A stretch of DNA of 64,000 nucleotides from a virus: IMG/VR virus record IMGVR_UViG_3300045988_016718. One strand, written 5' to 3'. The notes below the pieces were generated by a model that was not told where the DNA came from, did no database searches, and saw nothing but the letters and a program-made list of their open reading frames with translations. Positions 5,955-61,200 of this stretch are shown piece by piece. The translations under genes and the position numbers were made by a program. The first letter of the stretch is position 1, and each line of letters opens with the position of its first letter.

Positions 5955-5958
5955 GGCA

Positions 5959-6300: not shown

Positions 6301-6311
6301 GGAGACACATT

Positions 6312-7376: not shown

Positions 7377-7381
7377 AATAG

Positions 7382-7416: not shown

Positions 7417-7426
7417 ATACATAGTT

Positions 7427-7984: not shown

Positions 7985-7985
7985 T

Positions 7986-29967: not shown

Positions 29968-29986
29968 ACTTTAAAGATTTAGAATT

Positions 29987-30481
29987 ATGGAATTTAATGG
30001 AATAATGACACCTCTGGTAGCTATAGATTCAGCTACCAGTAAGCTAAAACCATCACTTGAAGCTACATATGGACCTTATGCCAGTATTGATGCAGCATAT
30101 GCTGCTATAGTTGAAGCATTTGAGTCTGGTGGTATACCAGTAGGTCTGACAGTAGGTATTCAAACAGGAAGTAACATTGTTGATTACTGGTTTAATGGTG
30201 GAACAGCTAAAGCTAATTTAGTGAAGAAATATCCTGAAGGTGGTTCAGGTGGGGGATATACCCTATTCACTACTCCTTCTGTTGCAGAAGATAGCACAAC
30301 TTATCTGAATACTAACTTTGCAGATGCTGTTAAAGGAGACCATGTAGTTGACACTACTACTGGTCATGTGTATATTAAGTACTCTGATACAGGTTGGACT
30401 AAACTTGTGGGTACTATTCTTGCTGCATCTCCTTCACCAAATGCAAGTATAGTGGCAGCAGCAATCATGTCATACAAATAA
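29987..30481 (+). CDS. Hypothetical virion protein
   Basis: 164-aa Ala/Gly-rich ORF. Confidence 0.7.
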   Translation: MEFNGIMTPLVAIDSATSKLKPSLEATYGPYASIDAAYAAIVEAFESGGIPVGLTVGIQTGSNIVDYWFNGGTAKANLVKKYPEGGSGGGYTLFTTPSVAEDSTTYLNTNFADAVKGDHVVDTTTGHVYIKYSDTGWTKLVGTILAASPSPNASIVAAAIMSYK

Positions 30482-30491
30482 AATTAAGATT

Positions 30492-36500: not shown

Positions 36501-37193
36501 GCAACTGGTGCTGACTATGGTACATGGATGATTGACTGGGAAGCAAGCAAGGCAGCTATAGATGCTGTTACAGAAACAGACCCACAAAACTCTGCATCCT
36601 ACTTGAGGTCTAATCAGCTTAAATGGGTTAAGATAATGGATACTATTGATGAAGTCAACTATGGTGCTAATGTGAGGTCATGCAGATTCAATAACTGGAT
36701 GAATGAAGCATGGAATGATGGTTGTGGAGTATATGGTACTATTGCTAATTCACAATTAGGTAAGGGAGAACTCTCTGTCAATAATAGAACTCCTTTAGGT
36801 TCTATTGACCCCAAGGCAGTACAACAAGCTGCAAGATATGTAGAACATTACTATGATGATGGACAATATCATAAGTGGTCAATTGACTGGAAAGGGGATT
36901 ACACTGCATTGTATATTGATGATGAACCTATAGCAATATGTAAGGCATTTGTGCCATTCAATCCTATGACAATGCTTGTAGGTTGTTGGTTCCCAAGTGG
37001 TAATGCTTATGATAAGAATGTGTTATTAGGTGAATGGGGAACTTGGTCTGGAGTTCATGCTGATTGGGAAGTAGGACTCATGCAAGTTAAAAGAATCAAG
37101 TTCAAGGCATATACTGAAGAAGAAGCTCCAACTACAGACATGAGATATGATTGTGAAACTTATGCAGAAGATGGATTAAGAGAGATTCTGTAA
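33597..37193 (+). CDS. Tail fibre protein with C-terminal GH16-like glycanase domain, paralogue 2
   Basis: The 1198-aa ORF has a C-terminal domain from about 35860 that aligns with the previous gene. Shared segments are INFEGDFDAAVTEFKKRYY, GLAICLWYFHYQE, NNEIDMELGS (36378-36392) and YHKWSIDWKGDYTALYIDD. Confidence 0.7.
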   Translation: MAVPTFNEYTYKISYKVGSSDEIILSEELVILVALTSEVIDGNVVQVQNPNYDYFMNTLSVSVAPVDGATLFIRRNKIMDGEIVVAEEKLVHQGAFSFPDYDTRQSLVITDTEVNGSTSHTILVQILNVVGEERIPCNYTLPKLEFAAQITDSQHVDIQYKQVGSTDYITLGTNVIVPPTGKINNISLGQLPDDTEYLLRIYHYEMDEEKFFLFHTNLIPTLGINPIIGKVEWNGRIVLLDAPNVKARMYPSPDKLDWMFPMDYSTKSFDNILSSLWTSDDYLGKNENYHFEMRTSTDNPEETYIGCAINKDHYIGLPFDYVNDKLPDQGASMNIFYKDLFTVSNPATDRNAIIMKFYADPTHVGPLKLLGINHNSEHDNTNYLGFNFNKAGDCREVNVFGKVMLTSSTGDPLITSGKWYTLLLVTNGDKINYLSISDYSNYSQTTIPINAGAHVGNVDLKNKLYDAGRLPVTIELTYDCTQYTSEIGLCIDYATYQYIEDNDTNNQIEKGNSIYKSPEYGTGKKITVTIPNDAAYGIAVGYSLGFLKGGTTVAGKVTITDFKVNGVSIFSDLTNYPFKVDEAASAYISGTKTDMIWAKTGDSLPTPIGGTVFEDVELNQNIELNARLFVGCPVQSGDMTNASYVVSRIGLHKSTITGTDSWDTPYQYIDPTVMEALGAGYKKMPKLKCTNDNGTVTVIPTSEMTEMKDATVRFLLEGLPIGKTRIEVESGEDILSSVSREIKSVKLTPAQADYDINFEGDFDAAVTEFKKRYYAKQKRWGGNMGGGTNGNLIYFNRGLKCLILEQHGDKYRGIVPAVAPAGANGYGLPVDLVENPLNYIPNTSQRTSRVGGLIQSVDYHPYGMFDCWFKVPKGMIGLAICLWYFHYQEIYNYDKTFKFWTETGVKGYTYADSVKSGYGATWVVINNEIDMELGSENTPYRTVMNPNSDTSIMWYVPGLSYRQAIGCTATGADYGTWMIDWEASKAAIDAVTETDPQNSASYLRSNQLKWVKIMDTIDEVNYGANVRSCRFNNWMNEAWNDGCGVYGTIANSQLGKGELSVNNRTPLGSIDPKAVQQAARYVEHYYDDGQYHKWSIDWKGDYTALYIDDEPIAICKAFVPFNPMTMLVGCWFPSGNAYDKNVLLGEWGTWSGVHADWEVGLMQVKRIKFKAYTEEEAPTTDMRYDCETYAEDGLREIL

Positions 37194-44535: not shown

Positions 44536-44567
44536 ATTGCATATTACAAAGTCTTTATGTATCTTTG
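44536..44567 (+). promoter_or_regulatory. Bacteroides-type promoter ahead of the ejection-protein genes
   Basis: ATTG at 44536-44539, a 20-nt spacer and TATCTTTG at 44560-44567, followed by CA. Confidence 0.55.
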
Positions 44568-44584
44568 CACAAAATGAATTAATT

Positions 44585-46678
44585 ATGGCTAACAAGATAA
44601 AGAAGAAAAGGTTTCCTGTTAAACCTAAGGAACAAGGAGTACTTCCTTGGTTGGTTGACCATCAAGGCAATATTTATGCTGGTGGTGGTATATTGGGAGC
44701 ATTGACAGGAGCTAATAAGGCTATGGATGCTTCAAAATTAGGTGGACTAATGGGTGGTGCCAGTGGTATTAGTGGTATTGCAGGTGGCATAGTAAGTGCT
44801 GCATCAAATGCAATATCAGGTGGTATGTCTACTGGTGTAGGTGGAGCTATGCAAACTATTGGTGGTATTGCATCTAATATCCCCGGTGTAGGTGGTCTTA
44901 TTGGAGCAGGTGTTAATGTACTGGGTGGTCTGGTTAATAGAGCATTTGGTAGTCAAATTAATGAGGAATTTGTTAATGAGACTAAGGCACAAACAGCAGA
45001 AGCAGCTAATACACAATTTGACAATAGTTCTATTGAGTCTGTAATACAACAGCAAATGGAGCATCAGGACTTAGGTAATGTACAAAAGTCACAGGTTGGT
45101 AAAGATGGATGGTTTAGTAGTAAGGCTAAAGACCTGACAGCAAAACTAAATAAGCAAAGACAAGCTGTTAATTTAGTTAATGATGAGAAGATTAATTTGG
45201 CACTTGAAGGAGCAGATGAAATGCAAGACTTGGATTTATTAGCAAACTTTGCTGCCTATGGTGGACAACTATTCAAAGATGGTGGCGGTATCCACATAAA
45301 GAAAGCAAATAGAGGAAAGTTCACAGAATATTGTGGTGGTAAAGTAACTTCTGAATGTATAGCAAGAGGCAAAAGAAGTAGTAGTCCTGCTGTAAGAAAG
45401 AGAGCTACATTTGCACAGAATGCAAGAGGCTGGCATCACAGTTTTGGTGGCTGGTTAAACACACAAGGTGGGGACTTTAGTAATGGTATTACCATGATTG
45501 GCAATGGTGGTACACATGAACAGAATCCATTTGAAGGCGTACAAATGGGACTAGACCCACAAGGAGTACCTAACTTAGTTGAAGAAGGTGAAGTAGTATT
45601 CAATGACTATGTATTCAGCAATAGACTTAAGGTACCTAAGAAAGACAGAAAGAGACTAAGATTAAAGGAAGGTACTTTTGCAGATGCAGCAGAAAAGCTA
45701 CAAAAGGAAAGTGCTGAAAGACCTAATGACCCAATAAGTAGAAGAGGACTTGAAGCAAGTATGAACAGACTAGCAGGAATACAAGAGGGAGTAAGGGAAA
45801 GAAAGAGTGGAAATAAGTTTGCAGATGGTGGTAAGAAGAAAAATTACAGGGATGTTGAAGTTCCTATGGCTGGTATAAATACTGACTATAGTGGTCAATT
45901 GCCAACAAGACTTACTGCACCTAAAGGAGTAATACCTATTGAGGAACAAGTACCTGATAGTGAATTAGCTCCTACTTGGATGAGATATGCACCAGCAGTT
46001 GGTTCTGCATTAGGAGTATTCAGTGATGCAATTGGTCTTACTAATACACCTGATTATGCACCAGCAGAGATGATAGGTGGAGTAATAACTCCAGTTAAAC
46101 CGGTAGGTGCAAGACAGATTAACAACAGACTTACTTATAAGCCACTTGATACAAACTATGAACTCAATAAGCTTGATGCTAATCAGGCTGCACAAAGGAG
46201 AGCATTAATCAATACTTCTGGTGGTAATAGGGCTACTGCTGCTGCTAACTTGATTGCAGCTAATGCTAATTATGGCAATCAGATGGGTGATTTACATAGA
46301 CAGGCTGAACTGTATAATCAACAACAAAGACAGCAAGTTGAAGGATTCAACAGAGGTACTAACCAGTTCAATGCAGAGGCACAAATGAGAGCTGATTTAG
46401 CTAATGCACAACAAGCTCAACAGATGAATGAACTAAGGTTGAAGCAGAAGTCAGCACAGGCTCAAATGTATGATACAGCTAATATGAGAAGCTCAATGGG
46501 CAGGGCAGCCAACCTTACTAATCTATTTGAGAATATAGGTGGTATTGGACAAGAGAACTTCTCAAGGAATATGATAACAAGTAACCCAGCTCTTCTATAT
46601 GATTTAGATAGTTCAGGTAGAGTACAATATAAGAAGAACAAAAAGAAAAAAGGGGGAAGATTGACTTATGGCAGGTAA
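44585..46678 (+). CDS. Putative ejection/cargo protein with glycine-zipper N-terminal region
   Basis: From the ATG at 44585 the protein reads MANKIKKKRF. It has about 100 aa of GxxxG-type repeats (GGLMGGASGISGIAGGIVSAASNAISGG...GVGGLIGAGVNVLGGLV) and an Asn/Gln-rich C-terminus. The track start at 44537 is a TTG inside the promoter. Confidence 0.7.
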   Translation: MANKIKKKRFPVKPKEQGVLPWLVDHQGNIYAGGGILGALTGANKAMDASKLGGLMGGASGISGIAGGIVSAASNAISGGMSTGVGGAMQTIGGIASNIPGVGGLIGAGVNVLGGLVNRAFGSQINEEFVNETKAQTAEAANTQFDNSSIESVIQQQMEHQDLGNVQKSQVGKDGWFSSKAKDLTAKLNKQRQAVNLVNDEKINLALEGADEMQDLDLLANFAAYGGQLFKDGGGIHIKKANRGKFTEYCGGKVTSECIARGKRSSSPAVRKRATFAQNARGWHHSFGGWLNTQGGDFSNGITMIGNGGTHEQNPFEGVQMGLDPQGVPNLVEEGEVVFNDYVFSNRLKVPKKDRKRLRLKEGTFADAAEKLQKESAERPNDPISRRGLEASMNRLAGIQEGVRERKSGNKFADGGKKKNYRDVEVPMAGINTDYSGQLPTRLTAPKGVIPIEEQVPDSELAPTWMRYAPAVGSALGVFSDAIGLTNTPDYAPAEMIGGVITPVKPVGARQINNRLTYKPLDTNYELNKLDANQAAQRRALINTSGGNRATAAANLIAANANYGNQMGDLHRQAELYNQQQRQQVEGFNRGTNQFNAEAQMRADLANAQQAQQMNELRLKQKSAQAQMYDTANMRSSMGRAANLTNLFENIGGIGQENFSRNMITSNPALLYDLDSSGRVQYKKNKKKKGGRLTYGR

Positions 46679-48275
46679 TATGATAGTAATAGGAAGCAAG
46701 TTCAAGCCATTCAGCTATGATGAAATGATTAAACCCATACAGGTAGCTGATGCTGAACATAAAGCTCTTGAAGGTGAAATGGGGGAACTCTCAACCAGAG
46801 CAGGAGTATTTGAGAAACTTGCTAATGAACAGACAGACCCCGAAGCTTATGCTATGTACAAACAGTATTCAACTGACTTAGCTTCACAGGCTGAATCACT
46901 TGCAAAGAGTGGTCTTACACCTGATAGTAGAACTGCACTCTCAAAGATGAGACAAAGGTATAGTCAGGAGATTACTCCTATTGAACAGGCATATAAGAGA
47001 AGAGATGAATTAACTAAGGAACAAAGGGAAGCAATGTTGAAAGACCCTACTCTGATGATGAGTCAGGCAGCTTCAACACTTTCTTTGGATGATTTGATTA
47101 AGAATCCTAACCTAAGTTATCAGGCTTACAGTGGTAATATGCTTACTCAACAAGCTGCTCAAGCTGCAAGAGAATTAGCTAAGTATCAACAGGAGAAACC
47201 AAGAGAATGGAGAAAAATTCTTGGTGGTCAATACTTTGAAAGCATGATGAATAGGGGGTATACTCCTGAACAAGTTATCATGGCTGCAATGGATGACCCT
47301 AATGCACCTAAGGAACTGAAGAAGATAGCAGATGATGTATATGCTTCATCAGGTATTGATACATGGGGTGATGACATAACTAAGCAAAGAGCTAAAGAGT
47401 TTATAGGTAGAGGATTATACAGTGCTATTGGTGATACACAATATCAACAGGTGCAGAATCAAGAATACCTTGACCCACTGCAAAGGGCTAAACTAGCTGC
47501 TGCTCAAGGTGATAATAGTAATCCTAGATTAGGTTACAGACCAGTACCAAGAACTACAGTAAAGGATGCTGAAACTACTCAATTACAAGATGAAATCAAC
47601 TTCCTTCAACAGGTAAAAGAGAACCCTGATATATTGAAAGAAGAGGCTGAAAGAGAAGTAAGAAATGAAGCAAGAGCTTATGGTGCTACTTGGGGTTCTT
47701 ATGGTACTAAAGAGAAGTATCAACCTAATAGAGAGAAGTTAAAGAGAATCACTGATAAGTATGGTACAACTGACCCTGACTTTATTATACAAAAGGCAAA
47801 AGCTGAAATCAAAGGAGCAGCCATAAGAGACTTTACTTATTCAACTAATTTAGCTGATAATAGCTTGTTAAATGATGTGGTAACACAGAACTTAGCTACT
47901 ATGGCTATTAAGGATAAGATACCAGCTTATGAGTTCAAAGATGGCAAGAAAGGCAAACAGCTTGAATCTGATGAACTGGCTGAAATTAAGCCTAACTCTG
48001 GTCACTTAGACTTTGACCCTCAAAGTGGTAACTTAGTCTATGTATATAGAGACAAGAAGGACAAACTTAAAAAGGCTGTACTTGACCCAGAAGTAGTAGA
48101 TGATAAGAACAGAACCTTAAGGAACACTCAACAGTTAATAGAAGAAGCTAAAGAGAAGAAAGATTATGCAAGCATGAGCTTATTGATTGACTTCTATATG
48201 AGTGAACTTGATGGTAAGTTCAATACCCTTGCTAAGACTCAAGGCAAGACAGACAGTAAATTGTTTATGGAATAA
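46668..48275 (+). CDS. Putative virion internal/cargo protein
   Basis: 535-aa ORF with an 11-nt overlap with the previous gene. Confidence 0.7.
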   Translation: MAGNMIVIGSKFKPFSYDEMIKPIQVADAEHKALEGEMGELSTRAGVFEKLANEQTDPEAYAMYKQYSTDLASQAESLAKSGLTPDSRTALSKMRQRYSQEITPIEQAYKRRDELTKEQREAMLKDPTLMMSQAASTLSLDDLIKNPNLSYQAYSGNMLTQQAAQAARELAKYQQEKPREWRKILGGQYFESMMNRGYTPEQVIMAAMDDPNAPKELKKIADDVYASSGIDTWGDDITKQRAKEFIGRGLYSAIGDTQYQQVQNQEYLDPLQRAKLAAAQGDNSNPRLGYRPVPRTTVKDAETTQLQDEINFLQQVKENPDILKEEAEREVRNEARAYGATWGSYGTKEKYQPNREKLKRITDKYGTTDPDFIIQKAKAEIKGAAIRDFTYSTNLADNSLLNDVVTQNLATMAIKDKIPAYEFKDGKKGKQLESDELAEIKPNSGHLDFDPQSGNLVYVYRDKKDKLKKAVLDPEVVDDKNRTLRNTQQLIEEAKEKKDYASMSLLIDFYMSELDGKFNTLAKTQGKTDSKLFME

Positions 48276-48276: not shown

Positions 48277-51200
48277 ATGGCACAGGATAATTTTAACTAT
48301 GGTACTCCATTAAAGGGAGTAAATAGAAGACAAGGTATACTTGATGAGTTAAAAAGGAATGGATATGATGTATCATTTGCAGACCCTACACCCGGCTATG
48401 CTGCAAGACAGCAGGAGATGAATATAAGCACTCCTGCTGTGCAGGAGATTGGTGTAGCAGGTCTTAATGATAGCATGTATGATAAGGACATTACTTCTGC
48501 AACTCAACTTGATGACCTTAATAACACAAGAGGAGAACTTCAACCTTGGTATGCACAATTAGGTGCAGGTCTTGGTAAAGGTGTAGTACTTGCTGGTACT
48601 ACATTTCTTGATGGTACTCTTGGTGTAGTAGTAGGTGCAGCTAATGCTATAGACAAAGGTGAATGGTCAGGGTTCTGGGATAATGACTTTGCTAAAGGAA
48701 TGAAGCAAGTAAATGATTGGTCAGAGCAAATGATGCCTAACTATAGAACCAATGAAGAAATTCAGAATGACCAAAATGGTGAATGGTACAAGAATATATG
48801 GACAGCTAACTGGTGGGGTGACAAGTTCATCAAGAACTTAGGTTTTACTGCTGGTGCTATGGCTACTGGTAATCTTGTATCAGGTGCACTTAAAGGTGCT
48901 CCTGCTATGGTTAGGTCTATAGTTGGTTCTGCTGTATCTGCAATCAATGAAGGTAAGATAGAAGCATATAACAATGCTAATGAATGGTATGACTTTGAGA
49001 AAGCAAAGGTAGATGATGCTTATCAACAAAGACTTCAAGCTATAGACCAGAACTATAAGGGTACTGAAATGTATAATGCACTTATGCAAGATGCAAAACA
49101 GACTTATGACCAGTCCCTTGCCAAGTTAAATGAGGATAAAGCCAAAGTGGGTAATGTAGACTTGGCTCTTAATATACCTATTCTTACAGCATCAAACTGG
49201 TTTATGTGGGGTAAATTGTATTCTAAGGGTGCTAATACAGCAATCAGAGATACAAAGATAGCCATGAAGAATGGTAAATATGCTTCAACTAGAATGCCTG
49301 TCAAGGCTGCTGCTGGTTTCTTATCAGAAGGTGCTGAAGAAATGGAACAGAAGATTGCTGCTACTATCCCCGGACTTAAGTATGGTTCAGAGGTAGAGAA
49401 CTTCTATATGTCCAAGTGGGACCCAGAAGCTGCACAGCAATCACTTAATTGGTTACAGGCATCAGCTAAGGGTATTAGTGATACAGTAGGTGACCCAGCT
49501 TCATGGGAAGAATTTACTATTGGTGCTATGACTGGTGCTATGGGTATGCCTATGTTCAGAAGTGCTAAATCAAGTGAAGGTAAATGGAGAAGTCCTGTAA
49601 CTATTGAAGGTGGTATAGTTGGTGAATTTAGAGATTATCAAGAGGGTAAAGCCAGAGATAATGAGATGATTAACTACTTGAATAGTAGAATTGAAGACCC
49701 TAATTTTCAGAACTATTATCAAGGATTAGTAAGACACAACTATTATCAGAATCAAATGGATGCTGCTGCTGCTGAAGGAGATGTTGCAGGATTCAAGGAT
49801 GCAGAATCATCACAGTTTATATCTGATATTGTCATGTTTGACAATGCAGGTAAACTGAATGACCTTACTGAAATGATTAATCAGGCATATGATACTTCTG
49901 ATGAGAACCTCGATAATATCATTAAGAATACTACTGATGAGAATGGTAATGGTCCTTTCTCTACCAATGGTAATGCTATGGACAGAGAGGATATGATTCA
50001 AAGTCTTACAGAAGATAGAGATGATATTCTAAGGAAAATCAAGGATTACAGAACTACTAAGGACAAAATCATAAGAGTAGGAAGTCCTGACCTTACAAGT
50101 GAACAAGTGTCAGAACTTACTTGGCTTAACATGAAGCATGGTGACTATGTTGAGAGATTCAATGAGGTTGCTGATGATATAAGAGAGGCATTGAAGATGA
50201 ACTTTGCAACTCTTGAAAAGGAAGGTAAAACTATGGATAGAACCATACTTGACCTTAATAACCAAGAGCTGCTTGCAGTACTTGCAGACCCTAAGAATGA
50301 AAGCTTTGTAGCAATGCAAAGTGCTGTCAGAAAGATTCTGAATGACAGTTACAATATTGACAAGGTTGATATTGAACAATCTGTTAAAGACCTTAAGAAG
50401 TTAGCAGAGAAAGCTGTAGAGTTCAGTAACAGGTTTACTGACTTGCTGACACATCCTGAAAAGATGCAGGAAGCAACATCAGCAGCTGATGAACAAGTAG
50501 CTAATAGGGCACAAGAAGAGCAACTTGCACAAGTAAGAGGACAACTTACTAATGCTCAATCATTCAGTGATATAGCAGATATAGTAGGTGAAAACAATGT
50601 AGGTGATGAACTGTTAAGCGAGAATACTAATCCACTGGCTAAGGACTTCAAGAAAGCAATGTCATTTGGTGCTGAAATGGGTAAGCTTATCAATGAATCT
50701 GAACTATCAGATGCAGATAAAGAAGCTCTTAATGCATTACTTGACAAGAGATTCAAGGAAGAAAAATCACTTGCTGATTTAACTAGTCCTGAACTTATTA
50801 CAGAACCAGAAGGTGAACTAAGTGAAGCAGCTGCTAATCTATTTCAGAATATGATAGCAGAAGCTGCAACTAATGCACAGGAAAAGGATGCTATTCCTGA
50901 TGCAACTCCTACACCCAGTGGTAGAGAAGTTGGTAAGGAAACTACAGGAAGTGATGCTACTACAACAATACCTACTGAAACCAAGAATCCCTATAATGAC
51001 CTTATAGGTGAAGTAAGTCAGACTATTGACAAAGAGTATCTTGATGATTTAAGTCTGGCTCCAAGAATTAGAACACTTGAAACTTTAGTAGCTAAGGCTG
51101 CTTCAACCAAAAGTGAGGAAGATATAAGAAAGGCATCATCAGAATTAAACAATCTTATAGATGATATAGGTGGTTTACCTGAAATGTCAAGTGAGGATAC

Positions 51201-54200
51201 TTATAATAAGGTACAGAAACTAATAGGTACTATTGCAAGTAGAATACCTCAAATACCTTCTGCTTCTATTACTAATGAACAAGAGCTGAATTACCTTGAT
51301 AAGGATACTGAATCTGTTACTTCTACAACAGAGAACAGATACTATAGACCTGCAATTAGTGAATATAATACTCAAAAGCTAGCTCAAGGTATATTTGAAC
51401 CACTTATTGTAAGTAATCCTAATTATCAAGGTATATATAACTTCTTACAGTCTAAAGGTGCATTTGATTATGTCAATAATGGAAATGTTCATGAAGGAGA
51501 TACTCTCACACTTAAGGCAGAAAGAGTAGGAGATTACGATGAAATAGTAATGTATAAGGGTAACCAAGTAGTTGGTACTTTACCTTCACTTGCTACTGCC
51601 AAGAGTAAGAACTATGTGGGACTTGCTAACTTGATTACTAGAGTTGGTAAAGGAGAACAGGCTACACTTACTGTTAATAAGGTAATGTTAGGCAGATTCA
51701 AGTATGATAGAAACCAGACTCAATCTGTTAAGGATGTAGTTAAAGGTAATGCTGTACTCGGTGTAATGAAGAATATGAACTTACAGACTAATGGTGATGT
51801 AAATGCCGAACCAGTATATGATGAAGTTCACTCTGATGGTAAGGTATATCTATTACTTAAGAACAGTAGAGGTACATACTCTCCTAAGCTAGTAAGAGTC
51901 AAGCATTTTAATGCTGAAGAATTTAATCTTGGACAATTAAGTACATCAGGCAATAAGTCTGCACAAAAGATTCATGCTGCAATAGATAAGTTGTCTAAGA
52001 TAAGTAATCCTGACCAAGCATTAACTGCACTTAATGAGTTAGGTAAAGTACTTCATCTTGATAATACTTTCCATATAAGTCTTGACAACATGGGTAATAA
52101 CAAAGTACTTACTGTTAGATGGCTTAAAGATGGAGAATATATTAGGAAGAATATACTTGTTGAAAGAGGTGGAAGTGGAGTAATGACTCTTGACCCTGTT
52201 CAAGGTATGCAATATGATGAAGCTGTACATTCAACTCCTGAAGAGATATATGATGGCATACTTAATGCTCTATATGAGTATAATCCACCATTTAATATAT
52301 CAGCAGGTAAAGTTAACACAGGTACTTATAATCAAGATATACTGAATGATGACTTACTTTACACACACTTGACTGACACTCAAATGACTGGTAGTTGGTT
52401 CACTACTAACTATTATGATGATGCAGGTACAGAACAGAAAGCAGTTAACCCAAAGGGTAGAAGCTTTAACCCTGCAAGTGGTAAAGAAGGTGTTAGTGTA
52501 ACAGTAGGTGGAAGTAGATTCTATGTAGAGAATGGTAACATCTATGATATTAATGAGAACCTAGTTACTCCTTCTAATGCTGGTCTTATCAGAGACTTGG
52601 CTTATGCTGAATCATTATATGGCACTAAGACTAATGGTGCTACTATGGATAGAAACAGAATAGTATTACCTGATGGCAGAGTGCTTAATAGGTCTACTCA
52701 ATCTTATTTATCTACTAGTGAAGCTGATGATGTCAAGAGAGCTATTGAAGGCAGACAGAGTAAGGTAGCTATCATTAACTCAACTCTTCAGAGATTACAG
52801 GAAGACCAGCAAAAGGTCAAGAGAAATCCTGATGGTACAGCTGATACTTCTTCAGGTTCTTATATGGTAATGGAAGAAGATGGACAATACCATGAATATA
52901 GTAGAGTTCATACTGTTATAGGTAGTAACTGGACAGGAGAATTTAGTGGAAACAATGCAGCTACAATGGGTAACCTTGTGGATGATATTGCAAGAAGATT
53001 CTTTGGTTCTAATGAGAAGATTGAGAAACCTTCAAACATGAGCCAGCCAGCATTTAATGCATTGATGAAAGCTCTTAAGCAAATGAGAGTTAATCTTGAA
53101 AATGCAGGTGAGAAACTACTTACTAACAGGATAGTTGTATTCCATAAGTATGAAGATGGTACCAGAGTTGCTGGTGAACTTGATGCTCTTAGTGTTAATG
53201 AACTGACAGGTGAATTTAATATATATGACTTCAAGACTAGCAGATACAGCTTCCATCCTTTTAAGGATAAGTCAGGTGCTGTTATAGATTACTTTAGCTC
53301 TGTTGGTAGTAGACAAACTAGAAGTACAAGAGACCAATATACACTACAGCTTAGTGCATATAAGAACCTGTTTGACAGTAGTTATGATGGTACTATTAAT
53401 TCCTTAGCACTTGTACCATTTGTATTGAACTATACAAAGGATGAATTACAAGGAGTTACAGCGGAGAAAGGAATTAAGTTAACTTATAATCCACTTGTAC
53501 CAGTTAAAGCTGCACAAGGGGTTAAGATACCTGAAACTCCACCTGTAGTAGATAAGTCTAATGAGTTATTACAACCAGAAGTTAAACAGGCTCCAGCTCC
53601 TAAGAATGGATTACCTAATGCAGTTGAAGGTTATGTGATACTTAATGGACAAGTCACTAAGGGCAACATCAGACCTCTTATAGAGGTTGAAGGATTACCT
53701 GTATATTACTATAGAGAACCTGTTGTGACTAAGGGACTTGGTCAAGAAGAAACTACATTATACAAACACTATGCAGTGTTTAATAATGGTAAAATGCTTC
53801 AAATTGTACCAGGTTTACATGGTGAAGATACTATGTCAGAAGAGAAAGCATACAACATGATTAAGGATGCTATAAGTAGGAATCCTGCAAGAGTTGTAAC
53901 AGAATCTCAAGATGTAACGGAACTTAGTGGTAAGCCTATTGTGGTCCAAAAGAAGAATAAGTTACTAGAAGCTATGAAGGATTTGCAAGATGTTAATCAG
54001 AATAATCCTGAATATACAGAGGGGGGTATACCCAAGGTGGCTGAATCTCCACAAGAGAATACAGTTAAACCTGAACCTTATGATTCATTATTCAATGACA
54101 GTCATAGGAAGTTTGATGACTTGGATATTGAGACTCAAGAACTGCTTGAATTAGCAGGTTGGAGTAGTGATTCATGGAATGATGCTTCTGTTGAAGAAAG

Positions 54201-54234
54201 AGATAAAGGTCTTGAACAATTAGGTTGTTTCTAA
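48277..54234 (+). CDS. Giant (about 1985 aa) putative ejection protein with an embedded PD-(D/E)xK nuclease domain
   Basis: The ATG at 48277 (MAQDNFNYG) lies 1 nt after the previous stop. The RecB-family motifs are GELDAL (about 53173-53190), IYDFKTS (53221-53241) and QLSAY (53347-53361). Confidence 0.75.
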   Translation: MAQDNFNYGTPLKGVNRRQGILDELKRNGYDVSFADPTPGYAARQQEMNISTPAVQEIGVAGLNDSMYDKDITSATQLDDLNNTRGELQPWYAQLGAGLGKGVVLAGTTFLDGTLGVVVGAANAIDKGEWSGFWDNDFAKGMKQVNDWSEQMMPNYRTNEEIQNDQNGEWYKNIWTANWWGDKFIKNLGFTAGAMATGNLVSGALKGAPAMVRSIVGSAVSAINEGKIEAYNNANEWYDFEKAKVDDAYQQRLQAIDQNYKGTEMYNALMQDAKQTYDQSLAKLNEDKAKVGNVDLALNIPILTASNWFMWGKLYSKGANTAIRDTKIAMKNGKYASTRMPVKAAAGFLSEGAEEMEQKIAATIPGLKYGSEVENFYMSKWDPEAAQQSLNWLQASAKGISDTVGDPASWEEFTIGAMTGAMGMPMFRSAKSSEGKWRSPVTIEGGIVGEFRDYQEGKARDNEMINYLNSRIEDPNFQNYYQGLVRHNYYQNQMDAAAAEGDVAGFKDAESSQFISDIVMFDNAGKLNDLTEMINQAYDTSDENLDNIIKNTTDENGNGPFSTNGNAMDREDMIQSLTEDRDDILRKIKDYRTTKDKIIRVGSPDLTSEQVSELTWLNMKHGDYVERFNEVADDIREALKMNFATLEKEGKTMDRTILDLNNQELLAVLADPKNESFVAMQSAVRKILNDSYNIDKVDIEQSVKDLKKLAEKAVEFSNRFTDLLTHPEKMQEATSAADEQVANRAQEEQLAQVRGQLTNAQSFSDIADIVGENNVGDELLSENTNPLAKDFKKAMSFGAEMGKLINESELSDADKEALNALLDKRFKEEKSLADLTSPELITEPEGELSEAAANLFQNMIAEAATNAQEKDAIPDATPTPSGREVGKETTGSDATTTIPTETKNPYNDLIGEVSQTIDKEYLDDLSLAPRIRTLETLVAKAASTKSEEDIRKASSELNNLIDDIGGLPEMSSEDTYNKVQKLIGTIASRIPQIPSASITNEQELNYLDKDTESVTSTTENRYYRPAISEYNTQKLAQGIFEPLIVSNPNYQGIYNFLQSKGAFDYVNNGNVHEGDTLTLKAERVGDYDEIVMYKGNQVVGTLPSLATAKSKNYVGLANLITRVGKGEQATLTVNKVMLGRFKYDRNQTQSVKDVVKGNAVLGVMKNMNLQTNGDVNAEPVYDEVHSDGKVYLLLKNSRGTYSPKLVRVKHFNAEEFNLGQLSTSGNKSAQKIHAAIDKLSKISNPDQALTALNELGKVLHLDNTFHISLDNMGNNKVLTVRWLKDGEYIRKNILVERGGSGVMTLDPVQGMQYDEAVHSTPEEIYDGILNALYEYNPPFNISAGKVNTGTYNQDILNDDLLYTHLTDTQMTGSWFTTNYYDDAGTEQKAVNPKGRSFNPASGKEGVSVTVGGSRFYVENGNIYDINENLVTPSNAGLIRDLAYAESLYGTKTNGATMDRNRIVLPDGRVLNRSTQSYLSTSEADDVKRAIEGRQSKVAIINSTLQRLQEDQQKVKRNPDGTADTSSGSYMVMEEDGQYHEYSRVHTVIGSNWTGEFSGNNAATMGNLVDDIARRFFGSNEKIEKPSNMSQPAFNALMKALKQMRVNLENAGEKLLTNRIVVFHKYEDGTRVAGELDALSVNELTGEFNIYDFKTSRYSFHPFKDKSGAVIDYFSSVGSRQTRSTRDQYTLQLSAYKNLFDSSYDGTINSLALVPFVLNYTKDELQGVTAEKGIKLTYNPLVPVKAAQGVKIPETPPVVDKSNELLQPEVKQAPAPKNGLPNAVEGYVILNGQVTKGNIRPLIEVEGLPVYYYREPVVTKGLGQEETTLYKHYAVFNNGKMLQIVPGLHGEDTMSEEKAYNMIKDAISRNPARVVTESQDVTELSGKPIVVQKKNKLLEAMKDLQDVNQNNPEYTEGGIPKVAESPQENTVKPEPYDSLFNDSHRKFDDLDIETQELLELAGWSSDSWNDASVEERDKGLEQLGCF

Positions 54235-54246: not shown

Positions 54247-54283
54247 AAAGGGAGATAGAATTAACTATCTCCCTTTTCTTTTT
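54247..54283. terminator. Bidirectional intrinsic terminator between convergent arms
   Basis: Hairpin AAGGGAGATAG-AATTAA-CTATCTCCCTT. It is flanked by an A-tract (AGAAAAAATAAA) on the left and a T-tract (TTCTTTTT) on the right. Confidence 0.8.
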
Positions 54284-57200
54284 ATCTAGCATCCATTTTA
54301 AACCACCTTGCTGGTTGGTCAGGGTCAAGTGCATTAAGTACTTGTTTCCTGAATGGAAGTAAATCAAATATGTATTTTTCAGCTTTGGTGTATCCCTTAT
54401 ATGGTCCAGTCTCAATGACTTCATTATAGCTTTCAGGATAGAACAACTTGATTACATTCCTTAATTTCTTCATTGTAGGAATAATAACAGTTGGGTCATC
54501 AAGTAGCTTAAGAGATTCATCAAGCATTGTAGGACTTGGAAGCATAACACCAATATCACTCTTTAGCCTTAGAGCTGAATATGCAGCCATTCTAAGTACC
54601 CAAGGTTTATCTTCATCATCACCACCTGCTTCTTCAAGCAGACCAAGTAACAATGTAAGACCAATATAGGTTCCTATCTCCATTAATCCCTTTCTGATAT
54701 TACCTTTCTCAAGAGGAGTAAGCCCCTTCCATTGACTGATAATATCAAACTCCGATTGCTTGATGTCCTTATACATTTGCTTCAAGAACCTGTAACCAGT
54801 TTGGTAATAACCCTCTGTATAGTCCTGTAAGTCAAAGTTATATTTACCTCTACCAAATCTATTTAACCATAATGGTCTCATCCAGTCTCTATACATCATA
54901 GCCATTCTACCAACTGCTAGTTGTTTTGCAGCTATTCTGTCCTCACTGTTATATATACCATACAGGTTATTTTCAATACCTCTTACTCTATTTGAGAAAG
55001 CAAGTATATCATCTTGAGTAAACTGACTTCCATCAGCCTTTGTTACACCTTTCTTAAGCTGTAATTTAGCACCCATGTTCTTGTTTTTCCCATCAATAGG
55101 AACTACTTCAAGTGCATTCCAAAGACTAATGTTATTACCATTTGCATCCTTCAATTTGAACCTGTCAGCAAGAGCAATAGCAATCCTGTTTTGTGTCCAA
55201 TGGTCACCGGCTTGAGTAGTGAAGAATATAGCATTTTCTCCTATTAATCTTGTTGCCCAAGTCTTTTTGTTCCAATTCACATTTCTGACACTTTGCTTGT
55301 AGTCCTGTTGAACATTAAACAATTCATCAAATAGTGCAATCTTGCTTGTCTTGATTCTATTACCAATCTCTGCAAGATATGCTGGAAGATGAGTACCATA
55401 TTCCTTATCAGCATAAGCTAATTCCAAGTGATTGAAGAACCTGCCTGATGCAGCTTCAATGTTACTTGTTGCAAAGTTCTGTAACATGTTGGCTGTACCT
55501 GTGAGTAAGCTAAGAGCTGTAGTACTGTAACTTGTCATCTTCATAAGCAAAGCCACTGCCTTATTGGTATCAATCTTACTCTCACCAATAGTGCCACTAT
55601 CCTTCATGTATCTACCATATACTTGCATCTCCATGAATGAATTAAGCTTATCCATGAAGAAAGAGTTACTGCCTTTCTTAGTTAATAGGTTCTTTACTTC
55701 AGCCCCTAATACTTTGAATCCTTCAACTCTTCTTCTATCACCTTCAAGGTCTGCTACTTTCCTTTCAGCAAGCACAAGTCTGCCTACTTCAAGTGTATCA
55801 AGTACTTCATTCATTCTATTGAAATCATTGACCATAGAAGCATAAGCTATCATAGATGATGTAGAGTCAAGAGACAAGTCTCTCATATCCTCAAGTTGTC
55901 TTGTATAATATATGGGTAACTTATTAACTGGATTACCCTCAAAGTCCATTAGTACAGACTTATCATCCTTATATTGTACATCAACATCATCTTCTCTTCT
56001 CACTAAGGTATCCTTCATAGTTTCCCAAAAGTATTTGGCTTTGTTACCACTTCCTAGCATCCTTTGTAAGAAGTCTCTCCTAATCTGTGGTGCCCTATTT
56101 ACTTTGGTATATTCCTGTGGCAGGATATTATCTAACTTAGCCTTGAGGTCCATAATGAACTTGTAATACTCCTTTTGTGCAGAATTAAGGCTTGCAAATG
56201 CCTTGCTCTTGTATTTAGTCATGCTAGGGACAATATTGTTATGTTCGTCCCTGCTACTGTTTTCTGCATACCATATAGCTATTTCCCTTGACCTTTCAAG
56301 TAAGTCCTCACCTTCAGGATTCTCTCCATACTTATTCTTAAGATAATCATTGAACTTTCTCTTTTCAGCCCTATATGTTGCCCAGTCCACAGGTTGTACA
56401 AAGTAACCTGTTGGTACACCATTGGCATCTCTTTCATACATCCAGTCAGTATTCTTGATACCAGCTTTCTCAAGTTTCATAGCAGCATATTCAATATCCT
56501 TTTGCATATTGATAGTATCCTGTCTAGCTTCAAACTTTTGCTTCTTGACTACTTGGTCATAGATTTGTAACATAGGGTCTGAACTGTCAGCCATACTGTC
56601 AAGCCATCTGTCAAAGAAAGTAATGTCTCTGTCCATTGAAGTAACAAGTTCTTCTGCTGTATAAGTCTTTTTGTACTTATCTCTAGCAATAGTGATACTT
56701 AATCCTTCACCAACAAATGGTTTAATAAAATCAGTAAATAATGTCTTACTTACATCATAGAAGTCAGCACTTAAATCCTGTATGATAACAGTATTCTGGT
56801 CAAGAAGATTCCTCAACTTATCCTTGAATCTATTATCACCTTCTGCTGATGCAGCATTCATATCCTTCCTGATTTCAAGTATGATACTACCATAAGATGA
56901 CATATAGTTTCTGATGTTCCTTAATGCAGACATCTTCTCATTGAGAGGTGCATCCATATCCACTACTGTACTTAATCTGCCTTGTAGCTTCTCAAGTACT
57001 CCAAGACTGGTTTGTATATACTTATAAATACCTTCCAGTGCTTGATTTTCTGCAATAGATTGATTCAACTCTTCAATATATGCTTGCTGGGATGCATTAA
57101 AGTCTTCCTTCTTACCATATATCTTCAACCTCTTAAGCTCTTGTTCTATGATTCTATTAAGTAGATTGACATCTCTGTCAACCTTAGAAGTAAGACTGTA

Positions 57201-58274
57201 GAACTGTCTGTTATATTGAGGACTGTTAATCCTTAGATTAAACTTGCCTGTAGTAATATCCTGTGCTATCTGATTAGCCTCATTCTGTGCCTGTTGTACA
57301 ATAACATCAATATCAGAACCATTGAATCTTGAGAAGAAATTTTTTAGAGAGGTTAGGAACCTCTGGAACAAACTGGGACTTGGAGAATAAATGTCATTGT
57401 TGACAAGGGCTTTAGCTACCATTTTACCTAGAGCTTCTTCAGCTAACATTCTCAAGTCTCCATTATACTTGGCTGAATAGTTATCATAGTCAGTACCAAG
57501 TATTCTCCTTAGTGCTTCTTCATTAGTTAATGAGTTGATTGCTCTTGTCTTTATAGGATTCTCTCCCATAGCTTCAATAGCAAAGTGAGCAAACTCTTCA
57601 GGAAGAGCAGCTTGTCCTTCTTCGCCCTTAGCAAGTCTGATTACTTGTCTAAGTCCTGTAGCAGCATCCATTGCTACACTTAAGTCCATAACACCATTAA
57701 CACCTAGTCTTTCTTCAAGACTAGTGAGTGCACCAATACCAATACCCCATGAATTAAGTAAGCCCTCAAGCTTCTTGTTCAGACTATAATTAACAGCAAG
57801 TCTTTGTGGCTCACTATTCCTCTTTTCCCTATTAGGTTTAACAATAATAGTAGCACCACTGTTCTTGCCATCATAAGCTTCCTCTACTGTGGCAAAGTAC
57901 TTGTCTCTAAATGGACTGTTGTTATTGAACCTTACAGCCTGTTCCTGCAATGCAGATACATGACCATAGTCTTTAGGTTGTAATACCACCTTACCATTTT
58001 GTGTATGTCCTATCTCCCTATTAAGCATAGAAAGAGTCTCACTCTCATCTTTCAGCTTGGATATACCAATCTTGTTAAGTAAGTCATCAAATAGTGGCTC
58101 ACCATATTTATCATGCCTTACACTAGGGAACTTCTTTTGGAAGTCCACACTCTTAGCTCTAGTGTACCAGAACATAGCATCTTTCCTGTTGCCAAAGAAA
58201 TTCTCTAATTGAGAGTAGAGAGGGGATACTATCCCCTCAACTACCTCTGGTCTTAATTTACATTTTTTTGCCAT
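54282..58274 (-). CDS. Giant virion-associated protein downstream of the vRNAP gene
   Basis: About 1330 aa from the ATG at 58274 (MAKKCKLRPE), 7 nt after the upstream stop. The track start at 58322 overlaps the upstream gene. No motif was recognised. Confidence 0.7.
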   Translation of the reverse strand: MAKKCKLRPEVVEGIVSPLYSQLENFFGNRKDAMFWYTRAKSVDFQKKFPSVRHDKYGEPLFDDLLNKIGISKLKDESETLSMLNREIGHTQNGKVVLQPKDYGHVSALQEQAVRFNNNSPFRDKYFATVEEAYDGKNSGATIIVKPNREKRNSEPQRLAVNYSLNKKLEGLLNSWGIGIGALTSLEERLGVNGVMDLSVAMDAATGLRQVIRLAKGEEGQAALPEEFAHFAIEAMGENPIKTRAINSLTNEEALRRILGTDYDNYSAKYNGDLRMLAEEALGKMVAKALVNNDIYSPSPSLFQRFLTSLKNFFSRFNGSDIDVIVQQAQNEANQIAQDITTGKFNLRINSPQYNRQFYSLTSKVDRDVNLLNRIIEQELKRLKIYGKKEDFNASQQAYIEELNQSIAENQALEGIYKYIQTSLGVLEKLQGRLSTVVDMDAPLNEKMSALRNIRNYMSSYGSIILEIRKDMNAASAEGDNRFKDKLRNLLDQNTVIIQDLSADFYDVSKTLFTDFIKPFVGEGLSITIARDKYKKTYTAEELVTSMDRDITFFDRWLDSMADSSDPMLQIYDQVVKKQKFEARQDTINMQKDIEYAAMKLEKAGIKNTDWMYERDANGVPTGYFVQPVDWATYRAEKRKFNDYLKNKYGENPEGEDLLERSREIAIWYAENSSRDEHNNIVPSMTKYKSKAFASLNSAQKEYYKFIMDLKAKLDNILPQEYTKVNRAPQIRRDFLQRMLGSGNKAKYFWETMKDTLVRREDDVDVQYKDDKSVLMDFEGNPVNKLPIYYTRQLEDMRDLSLDSTSSMIAYASMVNDFNRMNEVLDTLEVGRLVLAERKVADLEGDRRRVEGFKVLGAEVKNLLTKKGSNSFFMDKLNSFMEMQVYGRYMKDSGTIGESKIDTNKAVALLMKMTSYSTTALSLLTGTANMLQNFATSNIEAASGRFFNHLELAYADKEYGTHLPAYLAEIGNRIKTSKIALFDELFNVQQDYKQSVRNVNWNKKTWATRLIGENAIFFTTQAGDHWTQNRIAIALADRFKLKDANGNNISLWNALEVVPIDGKNKNMGAKLQLKKGVTKADGSQFTQDDILAFSNRVRGIENNLYGIYNSEDRIAAKQLAVGRMAMMYRDWMRPLWLNRFGRGKYNFDLQDYTEGYYQTGYRFLKQMYKDIKQSEFDIISQWKGLTPLEKGNIRKGLMEIGTYIGLTLLLGLLEEAGGDDEDKPWVLRMAAYSALRLKSDIGVMLPSPTMLDESLKLLDDPTVIIPTMKKLRNVIKLFYPESYNEVIETGPYKGYTKAEKYIFDLLPFRKQVLNALDPDQPARWFKMDAR

Positions 58275-58281
58275 AATATTA

Positions 58282-61200
58282 TTATAAACAGAAACTTTCA
58301 CCACTTGCAGGGTCAAAGTCATTAGGTGTTAAATTAGCAAGTTCATTTATCATATCTTCTGATACTTCATACCCAAGTACTCTAGCTACATCACTTATAG
58401 GATGTGGAACATCTCTAATATCTCTTGTATCTTCTACTGGAGTATAATCATCATATATATCATTGAATGAAGTACTTGGTTCAGCACTTGAAACAACACT
58501 TTCCATAGCACTTGCATCCATTCCATATTGATATTCAACATACTGGTTCTTTAAACCCAAAGGCTTAATCCTGCTGTACTCTGCTGTACCAGCATCAACA
58601 TTAATCAGTTGGAAATACATGTCCCTACCCTTAACATTGAAGTAAACATATTCATGATATGTGAACTCCTTGTCAGTACTTGGGTCAAATGGCTTAGCCA
58701 ACTGTTTATCATCAAATGATGAGTACTTATCAAGTTTGATATTGAATCCTTCTGTATCAACACCAACCTCAATTGAACTCTTACTTACATCAGGTACAAG
58801 ACTTCTGTTATCCATGTGATTCCTTACATATTGTCTCCAGAAGTTATTGACATCAATTGGATTGGTCATTACTTCTCTAAGACTTCTGATATAGTCTCTA
58901 CTGTTTAACTTAACCTGTGTACTTGTCAGATGCCCAAAACCTGAAGGACTGAATCCAAAACCTTTGAAATAATTATATGTGAACAAGTCTTTAGCCATTT
59001 GAGAGGTTTCCTCATTCATATATAACAATGTAGTCCAGTCTCTGATATATTGTTCCTTTTGCATAGGAGTTATCTTACCTACATTTGTGAACACTATAGA
59101 GGGAACAGGATTATATTTAGTCCTACCAATAACCTTAAGTCTATTGATGAATGACAATTTACTTAGTTCAGGATGAGCTTCTTTAAACTTAGCAAATTCC
59201 TGTGGGAATTGATTGATAAAGTAATCTCTTTTCTCTTGAGCTGTTCTTGTGTCATCTGCACCAAATTGACTGTATTGACTCATATAATAAGTCAGAATGT
59301 CATTGTAGATACTATTTCTGGTCTTTTCATCAAGTCTGCCAAACTTTGTTACATCCTTAAGCATTGCAATTGCCTTGTTGTAATTGTCATTATAGTAAGG
59401 TACATAAGGCTTAAACATATCCTCTGTTCCTTCAATACCATAAGTGAACATTGCTTGAAGAATAGGAGTAGGACTATTAATGATTGTATTTTCATCCATT
59501 CCAAATCCAATGAAGTCTATGCCAGTTAAAGGATAACCTTCTTGCTGTGACTTCTCAAGTAAATCATCCACTCTTTCAATCTTAACAACATTAGCTGCAA
59601 TAGATGGACCAGCTGCACCATTCTGTGTATCTGCTCTAGTTGCTTGAGTCAAGTCTCCTAGGGCAGTTGATAACTTGCTTAACTTGCTGAACATGTATCC
59701 AACCATAAGCTGATTACCAAAGAACTGTGCTTCTTCGATGTTTGATGAATTACCTGAAGGATTATTGGCTGCTGCAATGTTACTTGCAAGCTCACTATCT
59801 GTGAAGTTATGAGAATTAATCTTGTCCCTTGTGTTGATGTTTTCACCACCTGCAAGTTTCTTATATTTCTCAAGTACTTCATTGATAACATCAGTCATTC
59901 CTCTTCTAGTATTCTCAATCATTTCAGTTATCTCTCTGACAATAGGCTGACTGATAATCAAACCTGTAGTCATAGGAGAATGACCCATTCTTAACAGAGT
60001 AAATGCTATATCAGCAGTTACCATGTTGAAGTTCATATCACCTGCAATAGGGTCTTTAGCATTATCCACAAATGCAGCAAGGAAACCTGATACATTTCTG
60101 GTAATAAACTTACCCTCTGCATTCTTTATGTCATGGAATGAGTTATACTGGTGTCCATTGATTGTCAGTACATACTCTGGTGCTATACCCAATTGGGTAC
60201 TCTGCATTAGAGCATGTGAAGCATTATGGTTAGCAGCAATACCAATCAATGATGCTCCAGACATATTCCTTTGATGTAGATTAACCCATGTATCTGGTGT
60301 AAGAGGATTCAATACCTGCTTACTTTCTTTAACAATATTATCCAGTTCATCAAGGCTATAGTTAAGTAGTTTATCTACTCCACCATACTTGCTTTTAAGC
60401 TGGTCTAATGTGTTATTTTGTAAGATAGTAGCAAGTCTTGCTGTTCTCTTTTGTTCATCAAATCCACCTGGGTTAAGGAACTTACCAGCAGTATCACTGT
60501 TAGTAAGTACTGACCACATAAGGTCTATCATCTGACTGTCTCTCTGTGGCTTGTTGTTAGCCTTTGCATTGTTATAGATGTCCATCTTGGAGTCACCACC
60601 TACCTTATTATAATTGTACTTATAAGGTACAACTTTAGGTGTATCATGTCTATACATATCCTGATTCTCTTTGAACCATTCCTTATATACATCATTCTCC
60701 TCAATATCTTCTTCAAGACCAAGCATTTGGTTAATCAAGTCAGCAGTACCAGCATTAGCCTTTTCAAAGTCCTTTCTGGCTCTTGCTCTGTCAAAGTCCT
60801 CAAGATAGAAATCATGGAACATGACATACATCTTATCCACATCAAAGTCAGAACCTGCAATAGTTGTAATATCCTCTGGTAGAATAATTACTGAACCAAC
60901 TTGTCTTGGAAGGAATCCAATTACTCTTAATGGAGCCATTGAATACTTATCCTCTGTTGGAACCCTGTAACCTATTACTTCCCTTAGCTTCTCTGGTACA
61001 ATGAATTTACCACTCTCATCCTTCTTGTTTATGTCAAGTTCATGTGTATTAGGGTCTAACAGTAAGTCATACAGTTTCTCTGATGGACAAGGAAGATAAC
61101 ATTCCATATATTTCAATTTCTTGTTTTCACCCTCTCCCTCAAATACCATTTGAGGCTTCCTTGCTAAACCATAAGCACTTGCTTGAATAAGAGCACCACC

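Follow-up and report, generated by a model that had tools for sequence, protein, structure and literature searches.

The DNA analyzed in this study is a stretch of 64,000 nt from a virus (IMG/VR virus record IMGVR_UViG_3300045988_016718), in the following called the window. On its plus strand it carries a gene (48277-54234) for a protein of 1985 aa, and within this protein we identified a domain (aa 1520-1740; 52834-53496, plus strand) which is almost certainly a PD-(D/E)xK nuclease of the clade comprising RecB, AddAB, RecE, Cas4, EXO5 and MGME1, in a form lacking an iron-sulfur (Fe-S) cluster. Given the conservation of its active-site residues, the domain is very probably catalytically active. 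The protein is the orthologue of gp47 of the Bacteroides phage PhiCrAss001 (crAss001), an 'RNA-polymerase-associated' cargo protein packaged in the capsid. In the human gut, no viruses are more abundant than the crAss-like phages. How their infection starts is a question that concerns the roles of the three giant RNA-polymerase-associated cargo proteins and the way in which a virion polymerase that prefers single-stranded DNA (ssDNA) finds a template. A conserved and apparently active nuclease in this cargo set provides a mutable handle on the start of infection, by D1636A or K1653A exchange in the culturable PhiCrAss001.

Motifs and profile matches of the nuclease domain

The four motif strings named in an initial annotation of the window, made from the sequence alone, were found in the order given there at aa 1539-1698 of the open reading frame (ORF) 48277-54234. 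All of them are encoded on the plus strand. The N-terminal beta-hairpin of the domain (aa 1528-1549; 52858-52923; strands 9-13 and 19-24 of the structure model described below) includes the string HEYSRVHTVIG (aa 1539-1549; nt 52891-52923). It is followed by helix alpha-1 with the conserved motif GxxVDxIxRxFF, which contains D1569 (52969-53004; model helix 40-58), and by motif II, A-G-E-x-D, with E1634 and D1636 (string AGELDALSV, aa 1632-1640; 53170-53196). Motif III, I-Y-D-x-K-T, contributes D1651, K1653 and T1654 (string FNIYDFKTS, aa 1647-1655; 53215-53241; model strand 128-136), and motif IV, Q-L-S-x-Y, with Q1691 and Y1695, forms the signature helix of the RecB family (string DQYTLQLSAYKNL, aa 1686-1698; 53332-53370; model helix 165-183). 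The predicted catalytic D1636, followed by D1651-x-K1653 on consecutive strands, gives the arrangement characteristic of PD-(D/E)xK enzymes, and AGELD, NIYDFKTS and QLSAY correspond to the signatures of motifs II, III and IV of the RecB-like family. These motifs II-IV were reportedly defined for RecB-like nucleases by Aravind et al. in 2000. The domain had initially been placed at 52860-53420; this location was correct, and the extent determined here is slightly wider.

In profile searches, PHROG_298 ('exonuclease') matched the window domain with E = 8.9e-8, and Pfam PDDEXK_1 matched with E = 0.003-0.0075 (16.7-17.9 bits), which is below its gathering cut-off of 22 bits. An exhaustive HMMER search with the domain as 255-aa query against 1.84 billion cluster representatives yielded 257 homologous cluster representatives, of which 140 had E <= 1e-10, and nearly all homologues sit inside proteins of 2000-5500 aa. 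For scans at the family level, 30 diverse members of the domain family were used. PDDEXK_1 matched 28 of these 30 members at E <= 0.1 (best 2.6e-7), DUF3799 matched seven and Cas_Cas4 (PF01930) two, while the NCBIfam profiles cas4 TIGR00372, AddB and AddA matched nine (best 1.2e-6), four and one, respectively; the window sequence itself gave no match to TIGR00372 or PF01930. Judged by these profiles, the window domain is a divergent PDDEXK_1 branch which becomes detectable at the family level. A profile search of PDB sequences returned four sub-threshold matches (E = 0.12-0.8), all of them RecB-like nucleases. ACE1, AdnA and Cas4 SSO0001 align with the domain on motifs II-III, thereby placing D1636 of motif II over their catalytic Asp.

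The designation 'Cas4-type' in the initial annotation is appropriate for the similarity in sequence and fold, but it does not extend to the Fe-S cluster. Because the sequence composition shows no cysteine in the nuclease domain and only one, C1984, in the entire 1985-aa protein, the Fe-S cluster of Cas4, AddB and EXO5 is absent. An assignment as Cas4 proper was ruled out by the missing four-cysteine pattern (C...CxxC...C).

Predicted structure and structural neighbors

Structure prediction with AlphaFold2 from the single sequence reached a predicted local distance difference test score (pLDDT) of 32.6 and was not used; instead, an alignment of 30 sequences was supplied, which resulted in a model with pLDDT 94.3 and a predicted template modeling score (pTM) of 0.89. 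The model consists of the N-terminal hairpin, two helices, a five-stranded sheet, a helix and further strands, with helices at 40-58 and 165-183 and strands at 93-96, 101-105, 111-115, 118-122, 128-136 and 188-200, and it contains the alpha-beta-beta-beta-alpha-beta core order of the PD-(D/E)xK superfamily. From the positions of the active-site residues in the predicted secondary structure elements we infer that they cluster in space.

Foldseek returned as top PDB neighbors the putative exonuclease 3l0a, human EXO5, AdnAB, RecE, Cas4 SSO0001, MGME1 and AddAB, all of which are DNA-end exonucleases. The probabilities were 0.92-1.00, with template modeling (TM) scores of only about 0.3-0.43 (0.43 for RecE) and identities of 11-18%. 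The RecB-family domains of AdnA/AdnB, AddA/AddB, RecE, Cas4 SSO0001, EXO5, MGME1 and 3l0a have the core fold and motifs II-IV (GxhD, hhhDxK[T/S], QxxxY) in common with the window domain. Unlike Cas4, AddB and EXO5, however, the latter has no Fe-S cluster; it also has no attached helicase, and about 1500 aa of a packaged giant protein precede it, whereas the RecB-family domains belong to repair enzymes. In a library of viral structures the best matches were segments of giant proteins of crAss-like phages, some of them already named 'PD-(D/E)XK endonuclease-like domain-containing protein' or 'Exonuclease'.

In crAss001, cr85_1, bajarodcaudo virus 1, Dulem virus 41 and cr128_1, a helical insertion of ~60 aa separates the hairpin from helix alpha-1; it is missing at the corresponding place (about 52924-52968) of the window copy. 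Also, a minus-strand ORF (52908-53234, 108 aa) lies wholly inside the nuclease domain; it was treated as a by-product of the coding frame.

Conservation of the active site

Residue conservation was analyzed in an alignment of the 140 homologues with E <= 1e-10, taken as representatives of clusters at 50% identity. D1636 is present in all 140 sequences, T/S1654 and Q1691 in 137 each, Y1695 in 135, and D1651, K1653 and G1633 in 134 each, while E1634 was found in 130. Within the helix motif, D1569 is kept in 130 homologues, accompanied by G1565 (132/140), R1573 (124/140) and F1576 (122/140). The hairpin is more variable, with Y1541 in 119, R1543 in 115, H1545 in 85 and H1539 in 75 of the homologues. 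HEYSRVH, initially taken for motif I, therefore turned out to be part of an N-terminal hairpin with moderately conserved histidines, and D1569 is the better candidate; it is likely the first metal-site or catalytic acidic residue.

Altogether, the seven active-site positions (D1569, E1634, D1636, D1651, K1653, Q1691 and Y1695) are kept in 93-100% of the 140 homologues. Invariance of the D, D-x-K and Q-x3-Y residues had been suggested beforehand as a check, and these residues were retained in 134-140 of 140. A few family members lack key residues, e.g. P0098 (ALKAD, QLSAKK). In comparison with five orthologues, the nuclease domain is the best-conserved block, with 40-52% identity versus 27-36% for the whole protein. 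IMG/VR contigs of up to 104.8 kb hold near-identical copies (96-100% across the domain), and the ratio of non-synonymous to synonymous substitution rates (dN/dS) of the gene against these near-identical relatives was 0.08-0.15 in the domain and 0.04-0.13 elsewhere. From this conservation we conclude that the domain behaves as an enzyme under purifying selection, strong at the metal-binding and catalytic residues, and not as a decayed or purely structural remnant.

The initial proposal of a full RecB-family PD-(D/E)xK nuclease was thus borne out by profile and fold searches (PDDEXK_1, PHROG_298, AlphaFold2/Foldseek). A lack of profile matches, substitution of the catalytic residues and absence from virions had been named beforehand as findings that would speak against it; instead, profiles match, the residues are retained, and the orthologous protein was found in crAss001 virions (see below). 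Chance co-occurrence of the motifs was ruled out by the E-values, the fold and the conservation.

The carrier protein and its probable packaging

The assignment of gene 48277-54234 as a gp47 orthologue is based on the ORF, its translation, tblastn and synteny. The ORF has zero internal stops; the reading frame is open from a GTG at 48202 (the start of the longest ORF), and the ATG at 48277 immediately follows the stop of the upstream gene. In tblastn, gp47 of crAss001 showed 33.7% identity to the window protein across 86% of its length, and its relatives in crAss-like Steigviridae showed 33-35% identity with 86-93% query coverage. This full-length similarity together with the conserved gene order places the protein in the gp47 group. 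At the DNA level, megablast gave no match of the gene to GenBank phages, and phmmer with the full 1985-aa protein gave no match to PDB sequences. Pfam and PHROGs detected no domain besides the nuclease in the window protein, as the initial annotation had stated.

PhiCrAss001 gp47 (YP_009910787.1, 2341 aa, 'putative RNA-polymerase subunit') and its Steigviridae orthologues in cr85_1, cr112_1, cr128_1 and Kehishuvirus 'tikkala' occupy the same position after muzzle/gp44, Cargo 1 and Cargo 2. They share with the window protein the N-terminal 600 aa, identical catalytic motifs and a C-terminal Cys motif; the window protein is shorter (1985 aa), lacks the ~60-aa insertion and has a short tail of 235 aa after the nuclease, in which no domain was recognizable. 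In the blocks of aa 101-600, identity to the five orthologues amounts to 26-62%, with most values at 40-62%. Two Gly-rich, moderately hydrophobic N-terminal segments (aa 93-121 and 205-223; 48553-48945, plus strand) were detected in a Kyte-Doolittle scan and fall in this best-conserved N-terminal region; by analogy to other phage ejection proteins they could interact with membranes.

Downstream, the nuclease domain is closed by a Pro-rich linker (53497-53613, plus strand), evident from the translation and block composition with 11 Pro in aa 1701-1800. The extreme C-terminus (54109-54231, plus strand) carries the motif …GW[ST]xExFxxxSxEERxxAxxC-xx, to which C1984 belongs and which is conserved in the family. 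Throughout the gp47 family the last ~40 residues are conserved as …L..KGW[ST]xExFxxxSxEERxxAxxC-xx, with a near-invariant Cys 0-4 residues from the C-terminus, often in a CaaX-like ending. The motif could be a signal for packaging, processing or tethering.

Mass spectrometry of crAss001 virions detected gp47 along with gp45, gp46, gp49 and gp50, and gp47 was attributed to the cargo zone of the capsid (Bayfield et al. 2023, PMC10172136). Transcription of crAss001 gp47 is late, alongside the structural genes, and gp49 and gp50 are middle genes (PMC8375218). By analogy, the window protein is presumed to share the capsid with gp49 and gp50, the virion RNA polymerase proteins, and to leave it by ejection through the tail, which makes the initial designation 'putative ejected protein' reasonable. 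We further infer that the domain is delivered to, and active in, the newly infected cell.

Because the major capsid protein (23847-25358) is 86-88% identical to that of the crAss001 group, the window phage is classified by this marker as a Kehishuvirus-related steigvirus. By comparison, gp47 is only ~34% identical to its crAss001 counterpart. This gap in identity reflects either very fast evolution of gp47 or its replacement by recombination.

Distribution, architecture and mobility of the module

Architectures were compared in 115 giant proteins, in which a median of 1600 aa precedes the domain and a tail of 90 to 3795 aa follows it. Further domains were found between the nuclease and the C-terminal motif. 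In the cr85_1 orthologue (gene 2896-10452), ART-PolyVal was detected at aa 2329-2459 (E = 7.3e-21). Among 15 long-tailed members, ART-PolyVal was present in five, and LPD23, AAA_33, cpYpsA (SLOG) and SprT-like domains in one each; the tail consensus of the long-tailed relatives carries a HEAFH zincin motif. Overall, ART-PolyVal was found in six relatives.

Because its members carry ART-PolyVal, LPD23, AAA_33, cpYpsA/SLOG and SprT-like/HEAFH domains, the gp47 family appears to behave like the 'polyvalent proteins', which are likewise giant, multidomain and packaged or delivered with DNA (Iyer et al. 2017, PMC5512222). We did not find this link stated in the crAss literature. DarB of phage P1 is an example of such a polyvalent protein. 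In the window copy only one enzymatic domain is recognizable, in contrast to the several of polyvalent proteins; ART-PolyVal and LPD23 occur in its relatives. The polyvalent-protein paper lists neither PD-(D/E)xK among the DNases nor any crAss-like phages (PMC5512222).

The module is not present in all gp47-like proteins. No trace of the nuclease was detected in those of IAS virus (Paundivirus) and cr111_1 (Lahndsivirus), neither by HMMER with all filters off nor by tblastn; the N-terminal region and the C-terminal motif of the family are present in both. Also, Cellulophaga phage records gave no match to the domain. Because IAS virus and cr111_1 have gp47-like proteins without the nuclease, the sequence comparison indicates that the module is accessory within Steigviridae and not universal.

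Furthermore, the module occurs in other carriers. In P0102 it is inserted (aa 332-545) in a gp49-like protein, and in P0138 its end precedes a gp49-like region. Four cluster representatives, P0089, P0106, P0111 and P0113, combine the module and a gp50-like RNA polymerase region in one polypeptide (E 1e-34 to 1e-47). P0089, P0106 and P0111 were confirmed to have a DFDxD motif and, a short distance past the nuclease, a HExxH motif; P0113 was under the length cut of the motif scan for DFDxD and HExxH. Fusion of the three virion proteins in some phages was described by Drobysheva et al., and the combinations of module and RNA polymerase fit this description. As read from these architectures, the module is not tied to gp47 and moves between RNA-polymerase-associated carriers, thereby linking the nuclease to the whole RNA polymerase cargo set.

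IAS virus encodes a separate 'PD-(D/E)XK superfamily exonuclease' in its replication block (H3301_gp035, 29528-30580). Comparison with the profile of the gp47 module by hhalign revealed no significant similarity, and an origin of the module as a recent copy of this replication-block gene was therefore rejected.

Relation to previous reports

The initial annotation had left open whether such a domain was described for crAss-like phages. This is the case: a PDDEXK domain in a large transcription-associated protein of some crAss-like phages was reported by Yutin et al. 2021 (Nat Commun 12:1044), and the report was repeated in a 2023 review. The feature is like the window domain in kind and gene block, and the UniProt names of segments from cr116_1 and ct3KQ27 agree with it. 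The report consists of one sentence and a figure, without residue conservation, fold analysis, distribution or function, and a literature search returned no paper analyzing or testing the crAss-like PDDEXK domain. The three RNA-polymerase-associated crassvirus proteins were described in 2026 as needing further study (PMC13434306). While the presence of the domain is thus already published, its residue-level integrity, its fold, its patchy distribution and its mobility among cargo proteins are new here. The value of the present analysis accordingly lies not in the discovery of the domain, but in a testable mechanism, the link to virion transcription and the recognition of an accessory, mobile module.

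Possible functions of the nuclease

We tentatively favor, as one possible function, the processing of the ends of the incoming phage genome in cis after ejection, a reading that is only slightly ahead of an effector role directed against host or competitor. Once ejected, the domain would refold in the cytoplasm and attack DNA ends in a Mg2+-dependent manner, its substrate in cis being the phage genome with which it entered. The leading end would be resected in 5'->3' direction, as by RecE and AdnAB, and the virion RNA polymerase, which prefers ssDNA, could use the exposed strand as template; alternatively, annealing of terminal repeats could circularise the genome. This function is favored because the close structural neighbors are all DNA-end exonucleases and because fusions of the module with virion RNA polymerase proteins, or insertions into them, recur. 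It is also favored because the virion polymerase gp66 of crAss-like phages strongly prefers ssDNA or denatured templates in vitro; this enzyme transcribes ssDNA and denatured DNA efficiently, does not transcribe double-stranded M13, and transcribes the native phage genome weakly (bioRxiv 10.1101/2020.03.07.982082). Moreover, a cargo protein of 220 kDa is probably present in few copies per virion, which suits a substrate available at one or two copies per cell, i.e. the genome ends.

Several points weigh against end-processing in cis. Since the domain is missing from the gp47-like proteins of IAS virus and cr111_1, with no match in the Cellulophaga phage records either, template generation is no universal need of virion transcription in crAss-like phages. 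The conflict-type domains located downstream of the nuclease in relatives (ART-PolyVal, LPD23, zincin, SLOG) and the evolution of gp47, which is far faster than that of the capsid protein (34% versus 88% identity), are fitted at least equally by a host-directed effector. In addition, the early region would lose one of its strands if the leading end were resected, and neither polarity nor substrate is readable from a fold with TM-scores of ~0.4 to solved enzymes. As a special case of end-processing, the packaged nuclease might be the missing factor for the start of early transcription by the virion RNA polymerase, resecting the leading end and handing over the exposed 3' strand, but we consider this improbable. 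To our knowledge, such a nuclease-primed start of transcription has no counterpart in other phages.

A conflict effector acting in trans, in which the nuclease would be the 'warhead' of a polyvalent cargo directed against DNA of the host, of a co-infecting phage or plasmid, or of defence intermediates, is only slightly less probable than end-processing in cis. It might, for instance, trim fragments and thereby keep CRISPR adaptation from capturing them, as has been proposed for virus-encoded Cas4 homologues. An effector would fit the C-terminal ART-PolyVal of cr85_1 and the ART-PolyVal, LPD23, AAA_33, cpYpsA, SprT-like and HEAFH features of other relatives, and it would be consistent with the variable tail length, the dispensability of the module in sister genera and the low identity of gp47 compared to the capsid protein. 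Packaged multidomain proteins have also been argued to act in phage-host conflict (Iyer et al. 2017, PMC5512222). However, it is the nuclease that is constant and the tails that vary, and selection on the nuclease is purifying, not diversifying. The nearest structural relatives need DNA ends, of which a circular host chromosome has none, and the few molecules expected per cell would be a weak weapon against a whole chromosome. According to Iyer et al., other DNase domains neither occur beside the ParB-like DNases of polyvalent proteins nor take their place (PMC5512222), and the PD-(D/E)xK module therefore lies outside the described polyvalent repertoire. If a host-directed role proved true, RecB-like nucleases would have to be counted among the weapons that phages inject. 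MuF-fused polymorphic toxins and T4 Alt and IPI* follow the same concept of a capsid-carried enzyme injected with the genome, but they use an unrelated carrier and target host proteins or restriction enzymes. We know of no RecB-like nuclease among such effectors.

Two further explanations were considered. The domain might work late in the producing cell, in processing of concatemers or branches before packaging or in host DNA degradation, and be packaged merely via its carrier. Many phage RecB/RecE-like exonucleases work in replication and recombination, in line with the category of PHROG_298, and crAss001 gp47 belongs, like the structural genes, to the late transcripts (PMC8375218). A separate, unrelated PD-(D/E)xK exonuclease is, however, already encoded in the replication block, e.g. 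by H3301_gp035 of IAS virus, and the nearly exclusive occurrence of the module in giant packaged or RNA-polymerase-associated proteins would be hard to explain unless delivery matters, so that a late role is judged unlikely. Some PD-(D/E)xK domains are non-catalytic, and the loss of key residues in P0098 as well as the apparent hazard of an active nuclease beside packaged DNA would suit a silent module which binds DNA ends or has a structural task, e.g. holding the leading genome end for the ejected complex. Retention of the seven active-site positions at the level given above is the pattern expected of an enzyme and not of a scaffold, and makes a silent domain very improbable.

Genomic neighborhood in the window

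The gene order around the gp47-like gene is as in crAss001, with gp44-like, Cargo 1, Cargo 2 and gp47-like genes, a terminator, and convergent gp49-like and gp50-like genes. The position of crAss001 gp44 is occupied by a gene for 1747 aa with a PHROG match to 'virion structural protein', the same annotation as in crAss001. It is followed on the plus strand by the genes for Crassvirus cargo protein 1 (gp45-like, 44537-46678; Pfam PF25725, E = 2.1e-59) and Crassvirus cargo protein 2 (gp46-like, 46668-48275; Pfam PF25712, E = 1.3e-136). The gp47-like gene comes next and ends at a bidirectional intrinsic terminator (54247-54276) with a 12-bp stem and T-runs on both strands, located between the convergent gp47-like and gp49-like genes; it is thus the last gene of the plus-strand structural and cargo operon, as initially proposed.

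On the minus strand, synteny with crAss001 identified the genes for a gp49-like RNA-polymerase-associated protein of 1346 aa (54282-58322), which had no Pfam match, and for a gp50-like virion RNA polymerase protein (58282-63975) with a DFDVD motif at aa 1043. The gp50-like ORF comprises 1897 aa versus 2412 aa for crAss001 gp50, and the final 25 nt of the window contain a stop codon just upstream of it; the window phage may have a split gene here or use a different start. A search for paralogous PDDEXK domains by Pfam detected none in ten ORFs of the structural block or in the gp49-like and gp50-like proteins. Two plus-strand ORFs of the structural block, 30492-33584 (1030 aa) and 33597-37193 (1198 aa), had no PHROG match. 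The plus strand also carries 23 tRNA genes in an array (1006-5343) that lies upstream of the structural module, and their order resembles that of the crAss001 tRNA array.

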